Source: a phage. Taken from it: a stretch of 64,000 bases of DNA. The stretch lies in the sequence record OZ346219.1. One strand, 5' to 3'. The position numbers and the translations under genes were made by a program. Position 1 is the first letter of the stretch; every line of letters begins with the position of its first letter. Of this stretch, positions 2,852-57,595 are shown in pieces. The notes under the pieces were generated by a model. That model was given only the letters and a program-made list of their open reading frames with translations, was not told where the DNA came from and did not search any database.

Positions 2852-4855
2852 ATGACTCTATTATCACCGGGTTTCGAAACGAAAGAAACTACTCTCTCCA
2901 CTACCATTGTGCAATCTGCGACTGGTCGCGCGGCACTGGTAGGTAAATTCCAATGGGGTCCAGCTTTCCAGATTATTCAAGTAACTAATGAAGTTGAATT
3001 AGTTAATAAATTTGGTCAGCCGGATAATAACACCGCAGACTATTTCATGAGCGGGGCTAACTTCCTCCAGTATGGCAATGACCTGCGTGTTGTTCGTGTA
3101 TTGAATAAAGAAAAAGCGAAAAACGCAACTGCCCTAGCTGGTAACATCGAGTTTGAAATCACAAACGAAGGTTCAAACTATGAAGTAGGCGATACCATCA
3201 AGATTAAACATAACCGTCAAGATATTGAAACGGCTGGTAAAGTAACTAAAGTTGATGGTGATGGTAAAGTTAAGGGCGTATTTATCCCAACTGGTAAAAT
3301 TATCGCTCACGCTAAAGCAATCGGTGTATATCCAGAACTTGATGGCGGTTGGACGGCAGAGTTCACTTCTTCGTCAGGTAACGGTAGTGCGGTGCTGTCA
3401 GTAACTAAAATTGTTACTGATTCCGGTCTTCTGTTAACGGATCTGGAAACTTCCCGCGCCAATATCACAAATCAGACTTTCTTGACTAAACTCCAGAAGT
3501 ATGATATGCCAGCGGTAAGCGCGATCTATGCTGGTGAGATTGGCAACTCGCTGGAAGTTGAAATTCTGGCACGTAGCGCGTTCAGTGGCGCGGTAGCACC
3601 TGAATTAACTATGTATCCGTTCGGCGGAACTCGTGCCGCAGCACGCAACCTGATTCCATATGCACCGCAGAATGATAATCAATATGCATTTATTGTTCGT
3701 CGCGATGGTGTTGTGGTAGAATCCTATGTACTGTCTACTCTGAAAGGGGATAAAGACGTATACGGCAATTCTATCTACATGGACGACTTCTTTGCTCGTG
3801 GTTCTAGCCAGTACATCTATGCAACCGCTCAAGGGTGGGTAGATGGTTTCAGTGGTATTATCTCTCTTGCTGGTGGTGTTTCTGCTAACGAAGCAACGAC
3901 TGGTGGAGTTGGTGCTGATCCGTTCATCGGTGCGATGATGCAAGGTTGGGATCTGTTTGCTGAACGAGAATCTATTCACGTAAACCTGTTGATTGCTGGT
4001 GCATGTGCTGGCGAAGGCGATGCGTTCTCTACCGTACAGAAACATGCTGTTTCCATCGGTGATGAGCGTCAGGATTGCTTAGTAATGGTTTCTCCGCCGC
4101 GTAGCACTGTTGTTAATATTCCGGTGACTACTGCAATTGATAACCTGATTGCATGGCGCGAAGGTTCAGGAAACTATAATGAAAACAACATGAACATTAA
4201 TACCACTTACGCGGTTATTGATGGTAACTACAAATATCAGTATGACAAATACAACGACGTAAACCGTTGGGTTCCGTTGGCTGCTGATATTGCTGGTTTG
4301 TGCGCTCGTACTGATGCTGTATCCCAGCCGTGGATGAGTCCGGCAGGTTATAACCGTGGTCAGATCATGAACGTGGTTAAACTGGCAATTGAGCCTCGTA
4401 AGGCGCACCGCGATCGTCTGTATCAGGCCGCAATTAACCCGGTAATCGGTGCTGGCGGTGAAGGGTTTATCCTAATGGGTGATAAAACCGCTACGACTGT
4501 TCCTAGCCCGTTTGACCGCATTAACGTTCGTCGTCTGTTTAACATGCTGAAAAAGAATATCGGCGATTCAAGCAAATACAAACTGTTTGAAAACAACGAT
4601 AACTTTACTCGCGCTTCCTTCCGTATGGAGGTTTCGCAATATCTCAGCACGATTCGCTCTCTGGGTGGCATTTATGACTTCCGAGTACAATGCGACACCA
4701 CGAATAACACGCCGGATGTAATTGATCGTAACGAATTTGTTGCTAGTATGTTCATCAAACCAGCAAAATCGATCAACTATATCATGCTCAATTTCACTGC
4801 TGTTGCAACTGGTTCTGATTTTGACGAAATTATCGGTCCAGCTAACCAGGCATAA
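2852..4855 (+). CDS. 18: tail sheath protein gp18
   Basis: 667 aa; N-terminus MTLLSPG..FQWGPAFQI.QVTNEV and C-terminal NDVNRWVPLAADIAGLCARTD match T4 gp18; RBS gagg upstream. Confidence 0.96.
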   Translation: MTLLSPGFETKETTLSTTIVQSATGRAALVGKFQWGPAFQIIQVTNEVELVNKFGQPDNNTADYFMSGANFLQYGNDLRVVRVLNKEKAKNATALAGNIEFEITNEGSNYEVGDTIKIKHNRQDIETAGKVTKVDGDGKVKGVFIPTGKIIAHAKAIGVYPELDGGWTAEFTSSSGNGSAVLSVTKIVTDSGLLLTDLETSRANITNQTFLTKLQKYDMPAVSAIYAGEIGNSLEVEILARSAFSGAVAPELTMYPFGGTRAAARNLIPYAPQNDNQYAFIVRRDGVVVESYVLSTLKGDKDVYGNSIYMDDFFARGSSQYIYATAQGWVDGFSGIISLAGGVSANEATTGGVGADPFIGAMMQGWDLFAERESIHVNLLIAGACAGEGDAFSTVQKHAVSIGDERQDCLVMVSPPRSTVVNIPVTTAIDNLIAWREGSGNYNENNMNINTTYAVIDGNYKYQYDKYNDVNRWVPLAADIAGLCARTDAVSQPWMSPAGYNRGQIMNVVKLAIEPRKAHRDRLYQAAINPVIGAGGEGFILMGDKTATTVPSPFDRINVRRLFNMLKKNIGDSSKYKLFENNDNFTRASFRMEVSQYLSTIRSLGGIYDFRVQCDTTNNTPDVIDRNEFVASMFIKPAKSINYIMLNFTAVATGSDFDEIIGPANQA

Positions 4856-4889
4856 TCAGTAAATTAGCATAGATTAAAAGTTAAATCAA

Positions 4890-4908
4890 GCGGGGAGAAA
4901 ATCCCCGC
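4890..4908 (+). other. intercistronic GC stem-loop between genes 18 and 19
   Basis: gcggggag aaaa tccccgc inverted repeat; no clear T-run. Confidence 0.5.
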
Positions 4909-4928
4909 TCTATTAAGGAATATCAATT

Positions 4929-5423
4929 ATGGCACTCGATTTGAATGATATTACACGCGGTTTCGAGTCTGGCGATTTTGCTCGTCCTAACCTGTTTGAA
5001 GTTGAGATCCCGTATCTGGGGCAAAACTTTAAGCTGATGTGTAAGGCTGCGACTGTCCCGGCTGCTACCGTAGAAAAAATTGCTGTAGGCTATCAAAACC
5101 GTAAAATTAACATCGCTGGCGACCGTGTATACGACGACTGGACCATCACTGTATTCAACGATGACGCACACAAGATCCGTGATGCTATCGTTGCATGGAG
5201 CGATCAGACACACGGCACTGGTTCGGCGATCACTGGTGCAACTCCTGCACAATATAAGAAACAAGCTATTGTTCGTCAACTTAACCGTAACACCGAATCA
5301 ACTAGCGAAAAAACATTGTACGGTATTTTCCCAACCAACGTTGGTGAAGTAACCCTCGATTGGGAACAAAACAACGAAGTTGAAACGTTTGAAGTTACTT
5401 TTGCTATCGATTGGGTAGAATAA
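4929..5423 (+). CDS. 19: tail tube protein gp19
   Basis: 164 aa; FESGDFARPNLF, NRKINIAGDR, WPTNVGE..LDW..NNE..TFEV match T4 gp19. Confidence 0.95.
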   Translation: MALDLNDITRGFESGDFARPNLFEVEIPYLGQNFKLMCKAATVPAATVEKIAVGYQNRKINIAGDRVYDDWTITVFNDDAHKIRDAIVAWSDQTHGTGSAITGATPAQYKKQAIVRQLNRNTESTSEKTLYGIFPTNVGEVTLDWEQNNEVETFEVTFAIDWVE

Positions 5424-5435
5424 ATATATTATCAT

Positions 5436-5454
5436 GCGGGGAGAAGTTCCCCGC
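5436..5454 (+). other. intercistronic GC stem-loop between genes 19 and 20 (near-copy of the 18/19 stem-loop)
   Basis: gcggggag aagt tccccgc inverted repeat. Confidence 0.5.
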
Positions 5455-5481
5455 CTAATTTCTCCCAATTCGAGGTGAATA

Positions 5482-7047
5482 ATGTTTAGTAGATTAAAAA
5501 TGCTTGCGCGTTGGGCTGATTTTGACAACGACAAATACGAAGAACAAATTAAAGATAAAGCAGAGTCTATCGCCGCACCTAAAAACAATGATGGTGCTAC
5601 GGAAGTAGAAATTAATGATAATTCACCTGCTAGCTCGTGGAACTCTCTTACCCAGCAATTTTACAGCACCGACCAGAAAATCAGCACAACTAAGCAATTA
5701 GTTAACACATATCGCGGTTTGATGAATAACCATGAAGTCGAAAACGCTGTACAAAATATCGTTAACGATGCGATTGTATTTGAAGAAGGTCATGAAGTTG
5801 TTTCATTAAATCTTGAGGCGACTGGCTTTAGTGAATCTGTAAAAGAGCGCATTCATGAAGAATTTAAAGATCTTTTAAACACTATCCAGTTTGATAGGCG
5901 CGGTCAGGATATGTTCCGTCGCTGGTATGTCGATTCTCGTATTTTCTTCCATAAAATCATCGGCAAAAATCCAAAAGATGGTATCATAGAATTACGCCAG
6001 CTTGACCCACGTAATCTTGAATACGTTCGAGAGATCATTACAGAAGACACACCGGAAGGTAAAATTTATAAAGCAACGAAAGAATATTTCATTTACACTG
6101 TAGGCAATAGCTCTTATTGCGCAGGTGGTCAAGTATTCTCTCCTAATAGTCGCGTTAAAATCCCGCGTAGTGCTATTACATACGCTCACAGCGGCTTGAT
6201 GGATTGCGATGATAAATATATCATTGGTTATTTGCATCGGGCTGTTAAGCCAGCAAACCAGCTTAAATTGTTGGAAGACGCAATGGTCGTTTATCGTATC
6301 ACGCGTGCACCGGAACGCCGAGTGTTCTTTATTGATACCGGAAACATGAACAACCGCAAGGCTGCACAGCACATGAACTCAGTGGCACAGTCTTTTAAAA
6401 ACCGCGTTGTTTATGATGCATCGACTGGTAAACTTAAAAACCAGCAAGCAAATCTATCAATGACAGAGGACTACTGGTTACAGCGTCGAGATGGTAAAGC
6501 AATCACCGACGTTACTACTTTACCAGGTGCATCCGGTATGAGTGATATCGATGATATTCGCTACTTTAACCGTAAATTGTATGAAGCGTTGCGTGTGCCA
6601 TTGTCACGTAGCAATCTCTCCGATGCAAATATGGTGATCGGTGGTGACGGTTCAGAAATTACTCGCGATGAGTTGGAATTTTCGAAATTCATTAGAACTC
6701 TGCAATCACAGTTTTCGGAAGTATTGCGCGATCCGCTTAAATATAATCTGATTCTCAAAAATGTAATTACGGAAGACGATTGGGATCGTGAAATAAATAA
6801 TATCAAGGTGGTTTTCCATCGGGACTCTTACTATACAGAAGTTAAAGACGCGGAAATTTTAGAGCGTCGAATCGGTCTAATCGAACGTATTACACCTTAC
6901 ATTGGTAAATATTTCTCTAACCAGACAGTGATGCGTGACATTCTGAAATATACCGATGACCAGATGGACACCGAGAAGAAACAGATCGAAGAAGAAGCGA
7001 ACGATCCGCGCTTTAAACAAACTCCCGATGAAATAGAGGATTTTTAA
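5482..7047 (+). CDS. 20: portal vertex protein gp20
   Basis: 521 aa; RRWYVDSRIFFHKII, IGYLHRAVKPANQLKLLEDA, MTEDYWLQRRDGKA match T4 gp20. Confidence 0.96.
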   Translation: MFSRLKMLARWADFDNDKYEEQIKDKAESIAAPKNNDGATEVEINDNSPASSWNSLTQQFYSTDQKISTTKQLVNTYRGLMNNHEVENAVQNIVNDAIVFEEGHEVVSLNLEATGFSESVKERIHEEFKDLLNTIQFDRRGQDMFRRWYVDSRIFFHKIIGKNPKDGIIELRQLDPRNLEYVREIITEDTPEGKIYKATKEYFIYTVGNSSYCAGGQVFSPNSRVKIPRSAITYAHSGLMDCDDKYIIGYLHRAVKPANQLKLLEDAMVVYRITRAPERRVFFIDTGNMNNRKAAQHMNSVAQSFKNRVVYDASTGKLKNQQANLSMTEDYWLQRRDGKAITDVTTLPGASGMSDIDDIRYFNRKLYEALRVPLSRSNLSDANMVIGGDGSEITRDELEFSKFIRTLQSQFSEVLRDPLKYNLILKNVITEDDWDREINNIKVVFHRDSYYTEVKDAEILERRIGLIERITPYIGKYFSNQTVMRDILKYTDDQMDTEKKQIEEEANDPRFKQTPDEIEDF

Positions 7048-7290
7048 ATGAAACAATTTATCGAAGCAATTAAAACTCGCGATCTAACGCTGATCGAAAA
7101 AGAATTTGATAAGATCATGGAGGCTAAAAAAGCCCAGATCATCGAATCCCAGCGTGTCGAAATCGCATCCAGTATCATGATCGAAGGTGAAGAAGAAAAA
7201 GACCGCGATGATGAAAAAGATATGGATGATGAGGACGACGAAGACGAAGATCGCAAAGACGATAAAAAAGACAAAGAAGACGACGAATAA
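7048..7290 (+). CDS. 67: prohead core protein gp67
   Basis: 80 aa, acidic C-terminal tail; position and composition as T4 gp67. Confidence 0.85.
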   Translation: MKQFIEAIKTRDLTLIEKEFDKIMEAKKAQIIESQRVEIASSIMIEGEEEKDRDDEKDMDDEDDEDEDRKDDKKDKEDDE

Positions 7291-7302
7291 TAGGAAGCCA
7301 AC

Positions 7303-7710
7303 ATGATTAAAGATTTTACTCCTAAAGCTGACTTAGAAACTTTTCTGCCGGAAGCACAGGAAAAATTGGACATGTTGGCTATGTTTGAGTCAGAAGAACT
7401 ATTGAAAATCGTTGAAGGTATCTCCGAGGATGAGCCGGAACTGGCGGTAGCAATGCTGTCTATCATCGACGGAATTACTGTAAATGAAGCAATGGTTAAA
7501 CATGTAAACGCACGCGGGGAAGTTGCACGTAAGAAAGATCGCAAAACCCGTGAGCGTAATGCTTACATGACTACTGGCCTAAGCAAAGCTAAACGCCGTC
7601 AAATTGCCCGTCGTGCTGCAAAAACCAAACGCGCAAATCCATCTATCGAACGTCATGCGGAACGTAAGCGCAAAAAAGCAATGCGTAAACGTAAGGCGTT
7701 AGGATTATAA
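7303..7710 (+). CDS. 68: prohead core protein gp68
   Basis: 135 aa, basic C-terminus; synteny between 67 and 21. Confidence 0.8.
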   Translation: MIKDFTPKADLETFLPEAQEKLDMLAMFESEELLKIVEGISEDEPELAVAMLSIIDGITVNEAMVKHVNARGEVARKKDRKTRERNAYMTTGLSKAKRRQIARRAAKTKRANPSIERHAERKRKKAMRKRKALGL

Positions 7711-49154: not shown

Positions 49155-51398
49155 TTACAGCTTGCAAGATGAGCACTCGCTAGCGTCTTCCGTACCATCT
49201 GCACCATCACGCACGTTAGCGTAATACAGTGTCTTGAGGCCGTAATATTGAGCAAACAACATATCATCTAAAACATCAGCAATATCGACTTTACCAGTCT
49301 TATAAGTGCTTGGATCGTAGGATGTGTTGGAACTAATCGCCTGATCTACAAACTTCTGCATGATCGCTGCCAGTGTCAGATAAGGCTTGTTACCTTTCTT
49401 GATCAGTGTCCAAAGCAGGTCAATAACATCAGCATTATTCTCTACGTTCGGAATGACCTGATTAAATTGCCCTTCTTTCGATCCTTTAACCGATACAATC
49501 CCGCGAGGCGGTTCAATACCGTTTGTGCTGTTAGATACCTGAGAAGACGACTCACACGGCATCAGCGCCGAAAGTGTACTGTTACGAATGCCATATTTTT
49601 TCAGGTCTTCGCGCAGTTCTTCCCAATCCATCTCATACACCGGATCAACCAGTTCATCTACTGTCTTTTTGTACCAGTCGATAGGCAGTTCACCGCGACC
49701 ATAGCGTGTTTCGTGCATCAGTTCGCAAGCACCCTTCTCTTTAGCCAGTCGCACACTAGCCTTAATCAGAGCATATTGCAAGCGTTCAAACGTTTTATGC
49801 GTAAACTCGTTAGCGTCTTCATATGTGAAGAAATTATCTGCTAGATATGATGCAAAGTTAGTAACACCAACACCCAGAGAGCGACGTTTTTTGGCTGTCA
49901 GAGCTTGTTCTACAGGATAATCCTGATAATCTAACAGGTTGTCAAGTGCACGCACCATAACCATAGCAATGCGTTCTACTTCTTCCATATTTTCGATATC
50001 GAAATTACCTAAAACATATGCTGCCAAAGTACATAGGCTAATTTCTGAATCATCACGACCCATCGGTTTAGTAGGCAGTGCAATTTCACAACACAGGTTA
50101 GATTGTTTAATCGGTGCTACATTACGAATAAACGCCCCGTGATTGTTCATGTTGTCTGTGAACGTTGGGTAGATTCGACCAGTGTTAAAACGTTCAATTG
50201 CCACCGCTAAAAACAGGTCTTCGGCTTTAACACGAGTTTTACGAACACTCGGATCTTTTTCCAGTTTTTCGTAAAGTTGGCGGAAACCTTCCTCATCTCG
50301 GAAGTATAGATCCCACAACAAGCCACCCGCAACATCTGGACTAAACAGAGTAATGTAATCCCGTTTAAGGAATCGCTCTACCATCAGGTTATTAATCTGT
50401 ACGCCGTAGTCAAGATGGCGAATGCGGTTATCTTCCACGCCCTTATTGTTCTTTAACACAATCAGACTTTCAAACTCTAAATGCCACATTGGGTAATAGA
50501 GTGTCGCTGCCCCGCCACGAATACCGCCTTGTGAGCATGACTTAACGGCAGTCTGAAAATGTTTCCAGAATGGGATAACGCCAGTATGACGAACTTCACC
50601 ATGCCCGATCTTAGATCCTTCCGCGCGAATCATGCCAGCGTTGATACCGATACCAGCACGCTTGCTAATATACTTAATGATTGCATTTGCGGTTTCATTA
50701 ATACCCTGCAATGAGTCATCACTTTCGATCACCACACACGAACTAAATTGGCGTGTTGGGGTACGCACACCTGCCATAATCGGAGTAGGCAGAGAGATTT
50801 GCTTATTCGCAACCGCATTATAAAAATCAATCACATGTTCAAGTCGATTTTCGGTCTCTTCTTGATGCAAGCACATACCGATCAGCATATACGCAAATTG
50901 CGGTGTTTCGATGATTTTCTTAGTGCTGCGATCCTGAACAAGATATTTCTCTTTTAACTGCATCGCACCAGCATAGGTCATTTTAAAATCAAGTTTATGG
51001 TCGATGAATTTCTCCAGATATTCCACTTCTTCACGGGAATACTTTTGCAGAATTTCGCGATCATATTTTCCGGTTGCAATATTACGCTCAATATGGCTGT
51101 AAAAATCAATCGGTTGGAATTGACCGTATACTGATTTGCGAAGCGCGAACATTGCAAGGTTACTTGCTACATATTGATAATCGGGTGTTTCTACAGTAAT
51201 GTTATCTGCTGCGACCTTAATCAATACTTTCTGGATATCGTTGGTAGACATACCTTCTGTCAGAAGTGGTTCAACCATATCAAACAATTCATATGGATCA
51301 ACGTTATGACCTTCGGCTGCCGCTTCCAGAATTTTCATTACTTTTTCTTTTTCAAAAGGAACAGTCAGACCGGAAGACTTAACAACATTTTTAATCAT
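49155..51398 (-). CDS. nrdA: ribonucleotide reductase large subunit NrdA
   Basis: 747 aa; N-terminal ATP-cone, class I RNR core, C-terminal CSSC. Confidence 0.92.
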   Translation of the reverse strand: MIKNVVKSSGLTVPFEKEKVMKILEAAAEGHNVDPYELFDMVEPLLTEGMSTNDIQKVLIKVAADNITVETPDYQYVASNLAMFALRKSVYGQFQPIDFYSHIERNIATGKYDREILQKYSREEVEYLEKFIDHKLDFKMTYAGAMQLKEKYLVQDRSTKKIIETPQFAYMLIGMCLHQEETENRLEHVIDFYNAVANKQISLPTPIMAGVRTPTRQFSSCVVIESDDSLQGINETANAIIKYISKRAGIGINAGMIRAEGSKIGHGEVRHTGVIPFWKHFQTAVKSCSQGGIRGGAATLYYPMWHLEFESLIVLKNNKGVEDNRIRHLDYGVQINNLMVERFLKRDYITLFSPDVAGGLLWDLYFRDEEGFRQLYEKLEKDPSVRKTRVKAEDLFLAVAIERFNTGRIYPTFTDNMNNHGAFIRNVAPIKQSNLCCEIALPTKPMGRDDSEISLCTLAAYVLGNFDIENMEEVERIAMVMVRALDNLLDYQDYPVEQALTAKKRRSLGVGVTNFASYLADNFFTYEDANEFTHKTFERLQYALIKASVRLAKEKGACELMHETRYGRGELPIDWYKKTVDELVDPVYEMDWEELREDLKKYGIRNSTLSALMPCESSSQVSNSTNGIEPPRGIVSVKGSKEGQFNQVIPNVENNADVIDLLWTLIKKGNKPYLTLAAIMQKFVDQAISSNTSYDPSTYKTGKVDIADVLDDMLFAQYYGLKTLYYANVRDGADGTEDASECSSCKL

Positions 51399-51466: not shown

Positions 51467-52699
51467 TTATACTGCCATTTGAGCGGTGATTGCTGGATGG
51501 CTTTGATAGTTGTGAATTTTAAAGTCTTTCGGAGTCTTTGTCAATACCTCATCTAAAGATTTAAATTCCGGCAACTCAATCGTTGGTTTATCAAACGGAA
51601 CACGGCTTAACTGTTCCATAACTTGATCAAAATGGTTTTTGTAAATGTGAGTATCTCCACCAGAGAAAATCAGTTCTCCTACCTCAAGATCACACATTTT
51701 CGCTATGATGTGAGTTAACAGCGCATAGCTGGCGACGTTAAAGGGCAAGCCTAAAAAGCTGTCTACGCTTCTCTGAAACCACATACAAGACAGTTTACCT
51801 TCATTGACGTAGAATTGCACGAAAGGATGACATACACCCAATACAGCATTATGTGTTCCTTGTACGTTCCATGAGTCAATAATGATCCGGCGATCCGTTG
51901 GATTGTTTTTAATTTGTTCAATCACGTTTTGTAACTGGTCTTCCCAAATCTTCGGGCGATAGACATATTCTTCATCGTCTTTAGTGCTCGATGTGTCTAC
52001 GTCCATACTAGCAAAGATCGTGGTATCTGGTGCTAAAATATCCCCACCCAGATAATCACTATCAAGCAGATAACCGAAATAACCATCATCTACCCATTCC
52101 TGGAATCCCCACAAGCAATATGCATCATTAACAAAATTAGATTGAGTCTTCCAGTGGTCTGCTACTAAGAATAGATTATACTCAGAATCAAACTCTTCAT
52201 AACGCATACCACGCCAGATAGCACATAAACGGTCTTCTGTTTCATTGGTTGGCGTAAAGTCTTCTACCCACGGGTGCTTAAATGTATGTGCATATTTGCT
52301 CTTAACGCGCTTAATTTTGATTTCACCGTGTGGATGAATCGGTTTGCGTCGCCATGCCATACCATACATATTGCCGACATTATAACCATTGAATCGCAAA
52401 GGATTCTTTTCTTTCATATCAAGACAGTTGCCGCGCCAAATGTCGAAGGCTTCTTCGTCAAACTTACCGCGTGTAATTTCCTGTAAGCGACGGCGGTCAA
52501 GTGATCCCTCCATAAACCATAGCAATTCGCCAATTACAGAGGCTGTAGCCATCTTTTTAGTGGTTAGTAAGGGGAAACCCTTGCTTAAATCAATTCGCAT
52601 CTCTGCGCCGAATTTAGAGAGCGTACCTACCCCCGTGCGGTCTTCACGAGGCCAGCCATTATCAAGAACATCACGCAATAGTTTCAAATATTCTTTCAT
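51467..52699 (-). CDS. td: thymidylate synthase with ~120-aa internal insertion
   Basis: 410 aa; DRTGVGT, RRIIIDSWN, catalytic CH, FQRSVDSFLGLPFNVASYALL, GGDTHIY match ThyA; extra segment between WRR and DQLQNVI. Confidence 0.85.
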   Translation of the reverse strand: MKEYLKLLRDVLDNGWPREDRTGVGTLSKFGAEMRIDLSKGFPLLTTKKMATASVIGELLWFMEGSLDRRRLQEITRGKFDEEAFDIWRGNCLDMKEKNPLRFNGYNVGNMYGMAWRRKPIHPHGEIKIKRVKSKYAHTFKHPWVEDFTPTNETEDRLCAIWRGMRYEEFDSEYNLFLVADHWKTQSNFVNDAYCLWGFQEWVDDGYFGYLLDSDYLGGDILAPDTTIFASMDVDTSSTKDDEEYVYRPKIWEDQLQNVIEQIKNNPTDRRIIIDSWNVQGTHNAVLGVCHPFVQFYVNEGKLSCMWFQRSVDSFLGLPFNVASYALLTHIIAKMCDLEVGELIFSGGDTHIYKNHFDQVMEQLSRVPFDKPTIELPEFKSLDEVLTKTPKDFKIHNYQSHPAITAQMAV

Positions 52700-53618: not shown

Positions 53619-53948
53619 TCAAATCAGTTTGAAATAGTTTTCGTTTACATTTTCTTCTGTGATTGCTGTCTTAAATTCTTGACCGTTATCCGGTGTGATG
53701 AAATAACGGTCAGAATAATCACGAAAACGTTTTAAGTGAGATACCCCAACATTAACACCATTTTCCCAGAAACGAAAGGTAATCATTTTTGGTTCATATC
53801 GATAATCGCTGGTTAACACAGTACCATCCCCGCGACGGGCTTCATAAACCGTAATACATTCACGATTAGCGGCTTTAAGGCATTCTTCAATAGTGCCGCA
53901 CGAGATAATACTTACTTTTTCATCTACGATTTGTTCTACAGTCCACAT
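53619..53948 (-). CDS. hypothetical protein (109 aa)
   Basis: start set at MWTVEQ after promoter cassette (track ORF starts 53981). Confidence 0.5.
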   Translation of the reverse strand: MWTVEQIVDEKVSIISCGTIEECLKAANRECITVYEARRGDGTVLTSDYRYEPKMITFRFWENGVNVGVSHLKRFRDYSDRYFITPDNGQEFKTAITEENVNENYFKLI

Positions 53949-53979
53949 AATATAATACTCTCTTTGTTTCGATATGTGC

Positions 53980-54007
53980 ATTATACACTATTGCGTTACG
54001 CTGTCAA
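53980..54007 (-). promoter_or_regulatory. sigma70-like early promoter cassette (PeSL-like)
   Basis: TTGACA-N16-TATAAT. Confidence 0.5.
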
Positions 54008-55180
54008 CTCTTTTTCAAAAGATTTTACAATATACATGATAGTGCTCAATTCAGACGGCGCTACTGTCTCTGTGTAGCCGTCCGGCATATCTTCTTTTGA
54101 GATATAGGAAGTTTTACCTTTCATAGCTTCCTTGATCTTGTTCTCTAATTCTAAGATCTTTTGACCATCTTGTAAAGTCAATTCATAAAAGATCTCGTGG
54201 TCGAACTGAGATTTACTGCTTTGTTGTTTTAGTCTTTTGGTGGTATTAGAATTTGTGACCCCAAATTTTACCCCGATTAATAAATGCTCTTTTATTAATT
54301 TTTGAATATACAGAGTTCCTTTTTTTAATGGATTGTACCCATATTTTGCACATTTAGGACATCGAGTTCCGTTCTGAAAATCAGTTATTCTAGGACTAAA
54401 TCCATGTCCATGATCACATAACAACTTTAATCTTGTATTCACACCTTTCCATTCATCTACAAAACCATTACATGTTATATTTTCTTCAACGAAAATTGGT
54501 TTAAGTCTTTCAAGATATTCTTCTTTTGAACGAGCATAGTTTTTTGCACACTTAAAACAACGTCTTCCCGCTTGAAAACTAGATATAATTGGATTAAATT
54601 CATGACCATACTCACACAATAAATTCATTTTTGTTTTGTTGCCGTTCCATTCACCAATAAATCCGTTAAAAATTATGTTCTCTTTTATGAAAATTGGTTT
54701 AAATCTTTCAAGATATTCTTCTTTTGATAAAGCATAATTATGTGCGCATTTAGGACATCGAGTCCCTCTCCGAAAATTTGTTATTGTCGGTGCAAATTCG
54801 TGTCCTTCACAACACACTAAATCTAACTTTGTGAATACACCTTTCCATTCATCTACAAAACCATTACATGTTATATTTTCTTCAACGAAAATTGGTTTAA
54901 GTCTTTCAAGATATTCTTCTTTTGATAAGGAATAATTATGTGCGCATCTAGGGCAACGTTTACCTTTTTGAAAATCTGATATTCTTGGTGTAAATTCATG
55001 TCCTTCACAACACACCAAACCCAATTTTGTTACGTTGCCTTTCCACTCACCAACAAATCCATTAAATACGATATTTTCTTTTTCGAAAATTGGTTTAAGT
55101 CTTTCGTAATATTCCGTAGGACTAATCGAGTTGTATTTTTTCTTAACCCATTCAATCTCATGAGCTTGACGTACTAACAT
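53996..55180 (-). CDS. four-repeat zinc-finger protein with T5orf172/GIY-YIG-like C-terminal domain
   Basis: 394 aa; 4 x ~66-aa repeats (SKEEYLERLKPIF.EENI.CNGFVDEWKG..TKL.L.C..GHEF.P.I..F..G.RCPKCA.NY); C-terminal GTLYIQKL...IGVKFGVTN...TKRLKQ. Confidence 0.6.
   Translation of the reverse strand: MLVRQAHEIEWVKKKYNSISPTEYYERLKPIFEKENIVFNGFVGEWKGNVTKLGLVCCEGHEFTPRISDFQKGKRCPRCAHNYSLSKEEYLERLKPIFVEENITCNGFVDEWKGVFTKLDLVCCEGHEFAPTITNFRRGTRCPKCAHNYALSKEEYLERFKPIFIKENIIFNGFIGEWNGNKTKMNLLCEYGHEFNPIISSFQAGRRCFKCAKNYARSKEEYLERLKPIFVEENITCNGFVDEWKGVNTRLKLLCDHGHGFSPRITDFQNGTRCPKCAKYGYNPLKKGTLYIQKLIKEHLLIGVKFGVTNSNTTKRLKQQSSKSQFDHEIFYELTLQDGQKILELENKIKEAMKGKTSYISKEDMPDGYTETVAPSELSTIMYIVKSFEKELTA
54325..55126 (-). 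repeat. four tandem ~200-bp coding repeats
   Basis: recurring gaaaattggtttaagtctttcaagatattcttcttttga near 54490, 54700, 54890, 55085. Confidence 0.7.
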
Positions 55181-55209
55181 ATTTTATCCTCCGTTGTTTC
55201 GATGTGTGC

Positions 55210-55237
55210 ATTATACATTACAGCATCAGCATGTCAA
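55210..55237 (-). promoter_or_regulatory. sigma70-like early promoter cassette (PeSL-like)
   Basis: TTGACA-N16-TATAAT. Confidence 0.5.
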
Positions 55238-55262
55238 TACATTTTCATAAAATTTTAGGCAA

Positions 55263-55289
55263 TAAAAAAAGCCTCCCCGAAGGAAGGCT
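55263..55289 (-). terminator. rho-independent terminator (leftward) after gene 32
   Basis: A-run + agcctccccgaaggaaggct. Confidence 0.55.
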
Positions 55290-55299
55290 TTAAAATTCA

Positions 55300-56274
55300 T
55301 TACATCCCTAACAGAGCGTCAAGATCATCCAGATCAGAAGCGGAGGAAGTACCGCCACCCAGGTCCAGAGATGCCATCAGATCATCAGCGGAAGAATCTA
55401 ACGCCGTGCTAGCTGCGTTAATACCAACTACAGTGCTAGCTGCGGTAGTACCAGCGTCGAATGCATTCATCTGTGCGTCAAAATCATCAAGCTGGCTGTT
55501 AATCGCTGCCGCAGCACTGGAAGCCGCCGCACCAGCTACCATAGAAACGCCCATAGTTTTCTTAAATTTGGTTTCCAGTTCATCGAACGGTTTAAACTGG
55601 CTAGGCGCTACAATCTCACTCAGATCAACCATGTTTTCCATCAGATATTTCTGATATGCTTCGTCTTCAATTTTCGGAAGCTGTGATTGCTGCATGAAAC
55701 GAGAATCGTCATAGTTCTGGTGTTTATCAACCTTCTTAGCTTTCAGGAGGAAGTTAGCACCGGAGAACACACAAGTTACATCTACCGGAACTTCGCCCAT
55801 GTCGGTATTCACGTTCACCATTGCAACGATCTTATCATAAATTTTCTGACCGAAGCGGAATTTGAATACCTTACCTTCATTTTCTGGTGCTTGAGGATCT
55901 TTCAGTACCAGAATATTTGCGTAGTAAGAGGCTTTACGCTTAATCAGTTGCCATTCTGTTTTATCGGTATTGTACAGGTCTTTTTCGTTAATATATTTGC
56001 ACACAGGGCAAGAATCAAAATCACCGTGGGTGCTTGAGCAGTTTTCCCAATACCATTTACCATTAACTTTGAAGGAATGGTTTACCAGTTTCACAATCGG
56101 CAGACCGTCTTCTGTCTTAGACGGCAGGAAGCGAATCAGGGCTTCACCGTTACCTGCTGCATCAGTCTTAATCTTCCACTCTTTCGGATCTTCTTTGGAG
56201 AAACCGTTGCCACCTTTCAGTGCGGCCAGTTGAGCTTGCAGTTTGGAAGAATCTTGACGACGAAACATGTTCAT
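55300..56274 (-). CDS. 32: single-stranded DNA-binding protein gp32
   Basis: 324 aa; [49 protein letters not shown], acidic C-terminus as in T4 gp32. Confidence 0.93.
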
Positions 56275-56334: not shown

Positions 56335-56931
56335 TTAATTGCTTGTCAATACTTTATCAATTATATCTAACAGTTTTGGCTTTCTATTTTCAAATTCTAA
56401 CATCTCTTCGGGAGAAATGTCAACTACTTCTGTTTTGTTGAAAAAGTTTGGGTCTATAGCATCAGCAACAAAGTTTCTCGCAAGTGCTGCCGCTTTCTCA
56501 TGGACATATATTCCCAAATATATCAACTTCTTTCTTTCGACCTGAATATTGGCAACATATTTACCATCTCGTTTATAAAGACTAACACCGATATATTCAG
56601 ACGATCGACCTTTCTGTTTACCCATATTTCTTGAGTTTTGTTGCTCGTTCGCATCTCTCAAGTTTTCAATCCGATTATCTGTTATAATTCGGTTAACATG
56701 GTCAACGTATTTTGGCATGTATCCATGATGCATAAAGAAAATTATTCTATGCTCTTTATGATGTTTACCATCGATACACACCAATCTGTATCCATGACTA
56801 GGATTAACTCCACCCGCTCTAGATCCGACTTTATGCTTTCGGTTTGTCGATATCTTGCGAATCAGCTTACCGTTATCATATTTAAAGAGTTCATGACAAC
56901 GAGCATACAATTCAGGATCATATGTTTTCAC
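56335..56931 (-). CDS. HNH homing-endonuclease-like protein with AP2 DNA-binding domain
   Basis: 198 aa; HHKEHRIIFFMHHGYMPKYVDHVNR...DNRIENL (HNH) and EYIGVSLYKRDGKYVANIQ (AP2-like). Confidence 0.65.
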   Translation of the reverse strand: MKTYDPELYARCHELFKYDNGKLIRKISTNRKHKVGSRAGGVNPSHGYRLVCIDGKHHKEHRIIFFMHHGYMPKYVDHVNRIITDNRIENLRDANEQQNSRNMGKQKGRSSEYIGVSLYKRDGKYVANIQVERKKLIYLGIYVHEKAAALARNFVADAIDPNFFNKTEVVDISPEEMLEFENRKPKLLDIIDKVLTSN

Positions 56932-57595
56932 CTTTTAACCTCGATATTTCTTTACACTCTTTAACTACTTTAACAAATAATGCTCTTGCTTTTGCGGCGT
57001 CAATAACAAGTAGTTTCTTGTACGCCTTCATTTTAACACTATAAGTTTGCCAAATCAAGTCTTTGGCTACCTTGTCGTGTTCGTCGATTATATTTAGAAA
57101 GCTATCTAACAACATAAACGACTCAAACGATATAATCCGATTTTGCAGTAGTTTAAAGATACCGCTAGTTTCGGTTGCGGGATTGTATGTAATTAGCTCT
57201 TTAAGAGTAACCCCGCGTTTCTCGGAGAAGTATACCAGACTTTTAATGTCATCGTCAAATCGTGTTGCTGCATCGGTTATCTTTCCTATGTATTCCATAT
57301 AAAAGCCGTATGCGTCAACATCAGTGATTTCACCTACCCATGCATCGGTATTAGCTACCAGATTGCTTAGGAATAGGAAGTATAATTCTCTTAGATTGTA
57401 CTTTTCCGCTAATTTCGCGAAATAATACTTATCTCTGCGTTTATTGAATGCGGCATCAGATAACCGCATCCTCCAATTGTATTTTACGCAATCATAACGC
57501 CCGTTCATATGAGCTTTCATCATGCAATATAACATATACACAGATTTAGCATTAATTCGCATATCTGGATCTGGAGGAAGACGGTTTCTGATCAT
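56918..57595 (-). CDS. 59: helicase loader gp59
   Basis: 225 aa; KSVY.LY.M.K.HMNG.YD..KYNW.MR.SDAA..KRRDKY.F.KL, FISNLVAN.DAW as in T4 gp59. Confidence 0.9.
   Translation of the reverse strand: MIRNRLPPDPDMRINAKSVYMLYCMMKAHMNGRYDCVKYNWRMRLSDAAFNKRRDKYYFAKLAEKYNLRELYFLFLSNLVANTDAWVGEITDVDAYGFYMEYIGKITDAATRFDDDIKSLVYFSEKRGVTLKELITYNPATETSGIFKLLQNRIISFESFMLLDSFLNIIDEHDKVAKDLIWQTYSVKMKAYKKLLVIDAAKARALFVKVVKECKEISRLKGENI

Follow-up and report, generated by a model that had tools for sequence, protein, structure and literature searches.

A gene for tandem CapR-type zinc fingers and a putative T5orf172-type nuclease domain at a variable locus next to gene 32 of RB49-like phages

A putative endonuclease gene downstream of gene 32

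We analysed a stretch of 64,000 nucleotides (nt) of phage DNA (sequence record OZ346219.1; this whole stretch is called the window below) from an RB49-like T4-type coliphage of the genus Krischvirus (Straboviridae). The sequences flanking the locus described here are 95-98% identical to those of RB49, Phi1, GEC-3S and other phages. The locus contains a complete open reading frame (ORF) encoding a putative endonuclease of 394 amino acids (aa) on the minus strand (53996..55180). In the protein, an N-terminal leader of 18 aa precedes four CapR-type zinc-finger repeats, and a T5orf172/GIY-YIG-like domain forms the C-terminus. The ORF starts with ATG, and a GGAGG Shine-Dalgarno sequence is located 7-8 nt 5' of this codon. 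A preliminary description of the region had delimited the same ORF, which is borne out as a minus-strand gene with an ATG start.

On the minus strand, the ORF is preceded by gp59, an HNH_3/AP2 ORF, gene 32 (55300-56274), a hairpin and a promoter, and is followed by a second promoter, a 109-aa ORF, frd and td. The preliminary description placed the ORF immediately upstream of gene 32. Since both genes are on the minus strand, it is in fact immediately downstream (3') of gene 32, with a terminator in between.

The encoded protein matches PHROG 681, annotated as 'endonuclease' (E 5e-91), and no NCBIfam family covers it. Searches by tblastn with the ORF, the C-terminal domain or one repeat detected no paralogue elsewhere in the 64-kb window. 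The four-unit allele is absent from the phage collection, where the best match exhibits 68.9% identity, and the protein collection contains no match of at least 90% identity over the full length of the protein.

Four regular repeats of a CapR-type zinc finger

The region from aa 19 to aa 282 corresponds to four 66-aa repeats in register, each encoded by a 198-bp DNA repeat on the minus strand: repeat 1, a CapR-type treble-clef zinc-finger unit (aa 19-84; 54929..55126), repeat 2 (aa 85-150; 54731..54928), repeat 3 (aa 151-216; 54533..54730) and repeat 4 (aa 217-282; 54335..54532). Pairwise identities range from 59 to 74% at the protein level and from 67 to 79% at the nucleotide level, with 32/66 columns identical across all four repeats. 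When the protein is compared with itself, its identity at period 66 is 0.64, against 0.061 +/- 0.017 (maximum 0.14) in 2000 shuffled sequences, and Tandem Repeats Finder reports a 198-bp period with 3.4 copies and 75% matches over 54441-55105. The repeats are therefore real and far above chance, and the four units of about 66 aa on DNA repeats of about 200 bp noticed in the preliminary description, for which a self-comparison had been named as a check, have exact periods of 66 aa and 198 bp. Repeats 2 and 4 have in common an exact run of 89 nt (14-27 nt for all other pairs), which suggests a recent gene conversion or duplication between them.

Profile searches with the repeat unit, also named as a check in the preliminary description, returned two Pfam families above their cut-offs. 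The CapR homology domain (PF21817, 67 positions) was detected in four stretches (E 1.5e-20, 73.6 bits for a cut-off of 24.2) and DUF4379 (PF14311), described as a 'probable treble clef zinc finger', with E 1.3e-8 (35.3 bits for a cut-off of 24.5). The candidate zinc ligands C39, H43, C58 and C61 (unit numbering) form a C-x3-H-x14-C-x2-C pattern that is present in 4/4 repeats. Using a hidden Markov model built from the four repeats of the window, we collected 134 units from 41 homologues, 68 of them unique and near-complete. Among these 68 units, C39, C58 and C61 hardly ever vary, and most units keep H43. The pattern proposed earlier, Cys-Cys...His...Cys-x-x-Cys, is thus retained for the histidine and the C-x2-C pair. 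Its Cys-Cys doublet does not stand, being limited to repeats 1 and 2, and the second cysteine (position 40) belongs to the most variable columns of the 68 units.

In the full-length AlphaFold model, each unit consists of a 14-residue helix, two strands, a C-x3-H knuckle that comes after strand 2, a short helix, and the C-x2-C pair at a helix N-terminus. As modelled, this layout is a treble-clef arrangement. The mean predicted local distance difference test score (pLDDT) of this model is 88.7 and its predicted template modelling score (pTM) 0.37, with confidence dips at every unit junction. Given the high local confidence, the low pTM and these dips, the predicted zinc-finger modules look independent, as 'beads on a string'. 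The most variable columns across the 68 family units are 15, 32, 38, 40, 50, 53, 54 and 63. In the model, a short helix separates the two ligand pairs; columns 50 and 53 are located on it and column 54 next to it, so that these three could be candidate specificity positions. The finger array would presumably bind zinc and DNA; zinc binding and sequence-specific DNA binding have been shown only for the PLE protein CapR, by electrophoretic mobility shift assays and Cys-to-Ser mutants (PMC8096241).

A C-terminal domain of the T5orf172/MUG113 type

The C-terminal domain (aa 283-394; 53999..54334, minus strand) carries the motifs that we used to define the T5orf172/MUG113 set, namely a GxLYI strand, K-[IF]-G-x-[TS], an arginine in helix 1, a glutamate in helix 2 and, towards the C-terminus, G-x-[TS]-E-[WT]. 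They correspond to G288-T-L-Y291-I, K305-F-G307-V-T, R316, E346 and G368-Y-T-E371-T. Residues Y291, K305, G307, R316, E346, G368, T370 and E371 are invariant in homologues down to about 27% identity, and the motif positions are invariant or nearly so in three homologue alignments (A2, A3 and A4).

Pfam places MUG113 in the GIY-YIG clan, close to T5orf172. Taken alone, the nuclease domain of the window aligns with the C-terminal domains of the homologues P0039 (E 3e-24) and P0049 (E 2e-15). P0049, P0052 and P0072 exceed the cut-offs of both T5orf172 and MUG113, P0039 exceeds that of MUG113, and all four proteins exhibit the CapR-plus-nuclease architecture. The link between the domain of the window and these families is thus closed transitively.

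The model of the nuclease domain, obtained from an alignment of 46 sequences, has a pLDDT of 94 and a beta-beta-alpha-beta-alpha-alpha topology, with the alpha/beta fold of GIY-YIG proteins (a three-stranded sheet flanked by helices). The full-length model gives the same structural matches. The T5orf172-like C-terminus recognized in the preliminary description is therefore well founded, both by homology to domains that pass the T5orf172/MUG113 cut-offs and by the GIY-YIG fold of the model. Overall, we assign the protein with high confidence to the proteins that combine a T5orf172-type nuclease domain with CapR-type zinc fingers. The only T5orf172 protein studied biochemically, ICP1 Odn, exhibits metal-dependent DNA cleavage that requires the equivalent glutamate, as indicated by the E180A mutant (PMC8263062).

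Two homologous promoter cassettes bracket the gene

The interval between gene 32 and the endonuclease ORF (55181..55299, minus strand) corresponds to a cassette of the promoter-early stem-loop (PeSL) type, with a hairpin, an AT-rich stretch, a promoter, a conserved 5' untranslated region (5'UTR) and GGAGG. The hairpin (55291-55268; AAAGCCTTCC-TTCG-GGGAGGCTTT) is the intrinsic terminator of gene 32. It is followed by a perfect sigma-70 promoter, TTGACA-16-TATAAT (12/12; 55237-55210), in line with the promoter cassette of its own that the preliminary description had attributed to the gene. A second, homologous promoter/5'UTR cassette (53949..54007, minus strand; TTGACA at 54007-54002 ... TATAAT ... 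ATCGAAACAA) reaches into the final codons of the endonuclease gene and contains another perfect promoter (54007-53980), which serves the 109-aa ORF (53619-53948, minus strand; PHROG 16287, function unknown, no Pfam match).

The two bracketing promoters share a 22-nt core covering the -10 box and part of the 5'UTR, TATAATGCACAyATCGAAACAA, at 55215-55194 and 53985-53964. The 64-kb window contains no third copy of this core, for which 0.01 matches are expected by chance. The two cassettes thus form a direct repeat around the ORF, which lies between homologous early-promoter elements as PeSL modules do, with a hairpin and a 12/12 promoter upstream and a perfect promoter downstream. Moreover, each small ORF located between gene 32 and frd in the window, in kvi, in Cognac and in RB49 (endonuclease, kvi-type ORFan or 109-aa ORF) carries a homologous promoter/5'UTR cassette of about 55 nt (53949-54007 and 55181-55237 in the window), with the consensus TTGACA-N16-GTATAAT-rCAnnCATCGAAACAA-(A/C)GGAGG. 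In Cognac, the promoter of the ORFan corresponds exactly to the endonuclease promoter and 5'UTR of the window, from the -35 box through the Shine-Dalgarno sequence. In RB49 and phi1, PeSL cassettes have been shown to mediate the reshuffling of non-core ORFs as modules (Arbiol et al., 2010, PMC2839356).

The downstream -35 hexamer TTGACA lies within the final codons of the endonuclease gene (53996-54007; ...GAG TTG ACA GCG TAA, encoding E-L-T-A-stop), and the same hexamer provides the stop codon of the unrelated ORFan in kvi, indicating that the module boundary is the promoter itself. The start of the 109-aa gene differs between annotations. A mechanical ORF list begins it at 53981 (120 aa; 53619-53981), at an ATG that abuts the -10 box, whereas the annotation of the orthologues in kvi and RB49 uses the internal ATG, at 53948 (MWTVEQ...).

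Variation at the locus among phages

Genomes that are otherwise nearly identical differ in whether this fixed site holds the endonuclease gene, as expected of a free-standing homing gene. In kvi, an unrelated 109-aa ORFan stands in its place between flanks about 96% identical to those of the window, and homology ends at the ATG on one side (55176-55180) and at the -35 box of the next promoter on the other (54015). Cognac, FL04, FL37 and others carry both the endonuclease gene and the ORFan, whereas the window carries the endonuclease gene only. These three states of the locus (endonuclease only, ORFan only, both) fit putative recombination events between the cassettes.

The homologues contain 2 to 6 zinc-finger units, with protein lengths of about 265, 330-340, 400, 460-470 and 541 aa; W115 has 3 units, JEP8 has 6 and RB49 about 5 divergent units. 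The nearest allele, from a metagenome (P0002; contig ERZ27235393 k99_430), has three repeats, is 98% identical over aligned residues and is exactly 198 nt shorter. In its first unit, the first 135 nt are 93% identical to repeat 1 and the last 63 nt 98% identical to repeat 2, the crossover between the two being located inside the common stretch GTGTGTTGTGAAGGACAyGAATTT.

The 3' part of the gene is constant. Its last approximately 200 nt (53999..54200, minus strand; about aa 327-394) are 94-98% identical to those of RB49, JEP8, W115 and Cognac. Beyond about 54200, identity with the same four phages falls to 64-81%, or no alignment is obtained, over the fingers and the remainder of the nuclease domain, before returning to 87-96% immediately 5' of the ATG at 55180. 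The last 32-68 aa or so are identical even where the N-terminal half of the nuclease domain is only about 40-50% identical. Position 54200 or so thus marks a recombination boundary inside the nuclease domain. The metagenomic contig shows the converse pattern, with the same finger allele and a diverged downstream ORF (69-87%). This mosaic pattern of identity indicates that the nuclease gene sits at, and contains, recombination boundaries, and such boundaries at nuclease genes are the title observation of Barth et al. (2023, PMC10448857). All alleles examined are intact ORFs that keep all zinc ligands and nuclease invariants, and no frameshifted copy was found among the loci read.

Proposed function

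The gene is probably selfish and most likely encodes a homing-type or marker-exclusion nuclease of RB49-like phages. On balance, we favour a free-standing, early-expressed site-specific nuclease of the T5orf172 type that would bias inheritance, an activity that we infer from the features described above. The interpretation given in the preliminary description, of a candidate sequence-specific DNA-binding regulator or homing-endonuclease-like protein, is supported. The four independently folded CapR-type fingers would each bind a short DNA sub-site and jointly set a long target, and the tethered C-terminal GIY-YIG-like domain would cut DNA near this target with its predicted catalytic-type residues (Y291, K305-F-G307, R316, E346 and G368-x-T-E371). 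During mixed infection, related genomes without the allele may be cut by the enzyme within or close to the gene 32-frd region. Recombinational repair, with the nuclease-carrying genome as template, would then copy the gene together with flanking gene 32 and frd markers, as for T4 SegG at gene 32. Specificity could evolve when the 198-bp repeats recombine unequally or ectopically, and also by swapping of the finger array with the 5' part of the nuclease domain, the 3' 200 nt or so staying constant. The whole promoter-plus-ORF unit would be gained or lost via recombination between the bracketing PeSL-type cassettes.

Several observations weigh against this proposal. The last 110 aa or so alone match MUG113 (PF13455) with E 3.4e-4 and 21.6 bits, just below the cut-off of 22.3, and the window protein has no direct match to T5orf172 itself (PF10544). 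The canonical GIY-YIG catalytic set comprises the tyrosines of GIY and of YIG, an arginine, a histidine or tyrosine of helix 1, a glutamate and an asparagine. Of these, the first tyrosine, the arginine and the glutamate are found; the second tyrosine is replaced by lysine (K-F-G), as in T5orf172 domains generally, and Netter et al. described the ICP1 relatives as devoid of the canonical GIY-YIG motif (PMC8096241). A Foldseek search against the PDB gave non-significant results, an hmmsearch of the nuclease-domain profile against all PDB sequences returned only a chance match (EscO, E 0.8), and the comparison of this profile with T4 I-TevI by hhalign was non-significant (probability 0.1%). There is thus no sequence-level link to solved GIY-YIG structures, and the superfamily assignment rests on the Pfam clan and on fold similarity of moderate Z-score. 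Most sequenced Krischvirus genomes hold some allele at the locus, which leaves few empty sites for classical homing. The literature searched contains no demonstration of cleavage or homing for this protein or for any Krischvirus orthologue. Above all, PeSL and intragenic homologous recombination alone can explain mobility, presence or absence, allele swaps and repeat dynamics.

A bolder extension of our proposal, to which we give only a small chance, is that the locus holds a natural, rapidly reprogrammable zinc-finger nuclease with a constant 3' gene end. Phage strains would retarget it by reshuffling its units and by gaining or losing copies of them, as alleles compete with one another in an arms race. 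Each unit may read a defined DNA sub-site via a few hypervariable columns, namely 50, 53 and 54 plus 32, 38 and 40, and the product of each allele may cut competing alleles or the DNA next to them. In that case, recognition by the units should obey a code that could be deciphered, like that of the repeats of transcription activator-like effectors (TALE) and of C2H2 fingers.

Alternative explanations

The protein could instead be a domesticated or dual-function DNA-binding regulator, with a T5orf172 domain that is catalytically silent or only contacts DNA. CapR, the founding member of the finger-domain family, is a transcriptional repressor and T5orf172 was first predicted to be DNA-binding (PMC8096241), while I-TevI is both a nuclease and a repressor. 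The occurrence of the gene in most Krischvirus genomes, at a fixed locus and behind a strong early promoter, is also compatible with a retained, host-beneficial function. However, CapR consists of the finger domain alone, whereas here the nuclease domain is intact, with R316, E346 and G-x-TE invariant across distant homologues. Moreover, the finger array is hypervariable between near-identical phages, which is unexpected for a regulator of conserved phage promoters, and kvi manages without the gene. We therefore consider a regulator unlikely. A nuclease engaged in conflict rather than in homing, whose fingers would be shuffled to retarget it against competing phages generally, for superinfection or marker exclusion without propagating itself, or against resident elements or satellites, appears improbable to a similar degree. 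T5orf172 nucleases have been repeatedly co-opted against satellites (PMC8263062; PMC10448857), as in ICP1 Odn and the RepA_N-T5orf172 proteins Inny and Muut, and a fast-diversifying DNA-binding array over a constant 3' gene end does look like the product of an arms race. Yet the DNA-binding part consists here of CapR-type fingers and not of a RepA_N replication-initiator domain copied from a satellite. A distant blastn search with the whole ORF produced no match in 5,426 complete E. coli genomes. Nothing thus points to a recent exchange of this DNA with resident prophages or satellites, and the anti-satellite explanation is weakened accordingly. The PADLOC defence-system models gave nothing meaningful for this ORF, and we encountered no Krischvirus satellite in the literature consulted.

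The gene could also be a decaying passenger, a former homing gene that is now inactive and is moved, lost or duplicated only by PeSL and intragenic recombination. The bracketing promoter cassettes and the three locus states would be fully explained by PeSL recombination, and repeat gain and loss by unequal crossover. Nevertheless, decay is difficult to reconcile with the integrity of all examined alleles and with an ORF that has a strong promoter and Shine-Dalgarno sequence, and we regard it as very unlikely. As for the four-repeat structure, tandem 198-bp repeats and a known near-identical three-repeat allele are what could be expected if a tandem repeat had been mis-joined or over-expanded during assembly. 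However, with nucleotide identities of only 67-79% and a longest common exact run of 89 nt, the units differ too much to make collapse or expansion during assembly a likely source of the structure. The frame, the period and all four ligand sets are intact, and independent complete phage genomes hold 2, 3, 4, 5 and 6 units. Furthermore, the junction in the three-repeat allele is a clean homologous crossover, and this allele occurs in a phage with otherwise different flanks. We reject an assembly artefact, which the divergence of the units, the intact frame and the series of unit numbers in other genomes essentially exclude.

Comparison with known systems

Proteins of similar architecture have been described in ICP1 (Gp174, Gp165, Gp121, Gp53 and Gp130) and in the Vibrio phage Helene as putative T5orf172 homing endonucleases with repeated CapR/DUF723/DUF4379 fingers (PMC10448857; PMC8096241). 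As in these proteins, CapR-type fingers, often several, are located at the N-terminus and a T5orf172-type domain at the C-terminus; the fingers are encoded by degenerate DNA repeats, the genes adjoin essential genes and recombination boundaries are found at the nuclease gene. The in-frame loss of one repeat by intragenic recombination is also common to both, involving 228 bp in ICP1 gp174 (PMC10448857) and 198 bp here. In contrast to the ICP1 and Helene genes, the locus belongs to Krischvirus of the Straboviridae, with E. coli as host, the four units of the window are regular, with strictly 66 aa each, and the variation concerns one locus with 0 or 2-6 units, a constant 3' end of about 200 nt and PeSL flanks. 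The ligands also differ, C-x3-H...C-x2-C (CHCC) here versus CxxC...CxC reported for CapR (PMC8096241).

Within Krischvirus, the 'endonuclease' RB49p240 (NP_891811.1) and its orthologues in Phi1, GEC-3S, JEP8, W115 and Cognac occupy the same locus, in the order gene 32, endonuclease gene, 109-aa ORF and frd. They have the same promoter cassette and a nearly identical stretch of about 68 aa at the C-terminus; they differ from the window protein in the number and sequence of the fingers, with 45-69% aa identity overall. The arrangement recalls SegG and the other Seg proteins of T4, as well as I-TevI, in being a free-standing gene of the GIY-YIG superfamily next to gene 32 with a modular, 'beads on a string' product. 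The proposed action would also resemble that of SegG, which cuts a competitor genome near gene 32 and co-converts flanking markers. Like the origin-directed nuclease Odn of ICP1 (Gp88), the one T5orf172 protein for which cleavage has been shown to require the Glu (PMC8263062), the window protein ends with a T5orf172-type domain with conserved Arg and Glu. Odn differs in having a RepA_N domain copied from its satellite target, in having no zinc-finger array, and in its role in anti-satellite defence.

The cassettes resemble the PeSL elements of RB49 and phi1 (PMC2839356) in combining a hairpin, an AT-rich tract and a consensus sigma-70 promoter in front of a non-core ORF, with homologous flanking copies, and in that neighbouring phages differ by whole promoter-plus-ORF modules. 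Unlike in those elements, the hairpin of the window also serves as the terminator of gene 32, and the downstream copy has no separate hairpin and a -35 box located inside the last codons of the ORF.

Earlier papers (PMC8096241; PMC10448857) already describe the architecture, interpret such proteins as putative homing endonucleases and trace their evolution to recombination between degenerate intragenic repeats, and the RB49 orthologue is already labelled 'endonuclease' in PHROG 681 and RefSeq. Since this architecture was reported in 2021-2023, the locus is no new kind of system; it is an ordinary but good example. Its value lies in being a clean natural case in tractable E. coli phages, with 0 or 2-6 fingers at one locus by the essential gene 32 and a constant 3' end. 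The one-repeat crossover, caught in the act, and the PeSL boundaries are also instructive. Krischvirus phages are thus convenient for asking whether T5orf172 genes truly home, how a tandem CapR array chooses its target, and to what extent mosaicism near core replication genes is driven by nucleases rather than by recombination between promoter cassettes.

Neighbouring genes

On the other side of gene 32, a 198-aa HNH_3/AP2 ORF (56335-56931, minus strand) matches HNH_3 (E 2.2e-11), AP2 below threshold, and PHROG 99, 'HNH endonuclease' (E 1.5e-50). It overlaps by 14 nt the end of gp59 (56918-57595, minus strand). In T4, the GIY-YIG homing endonuclease gene segG is located between genes 59 and 32; the HNH_3/AP2 ORF sits in this slot, so that gene 32 is bracketed by two endonuclease-type genes. 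Both kvi and Cognac carry this ORF, with 99-100% nt identity, while RB49, JEP8 and W115 lack it; it is thus a second presence/absence endonuclease gene.

The thymidylate synthase gene td (51467-52699, minus strand) encodes 410 aa, compared with the usual 265-290 aa or so. Pfam Thymidylat_synt is detected in two stretches, separated by an insert of about 140 aa (about aa 105-255) with no Pfam match. The long td is also annotated in RB49 and is hence a lineage feature; Pfam does not identify the insert as an intein. On the metagenomic contig ERZ27235393 k99_430 (4210-7600), nrdA is interrupted, with an Intein_splicing match, a separate 314-aa HNH ORF and a second Ribonuc_red_lgC piece, whereas nrdA of the window (49155-51398) is an intact ORF of 747 aa. 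This difference is likely another mobile-element polymorphism a few kb away from the endonuclease gene.

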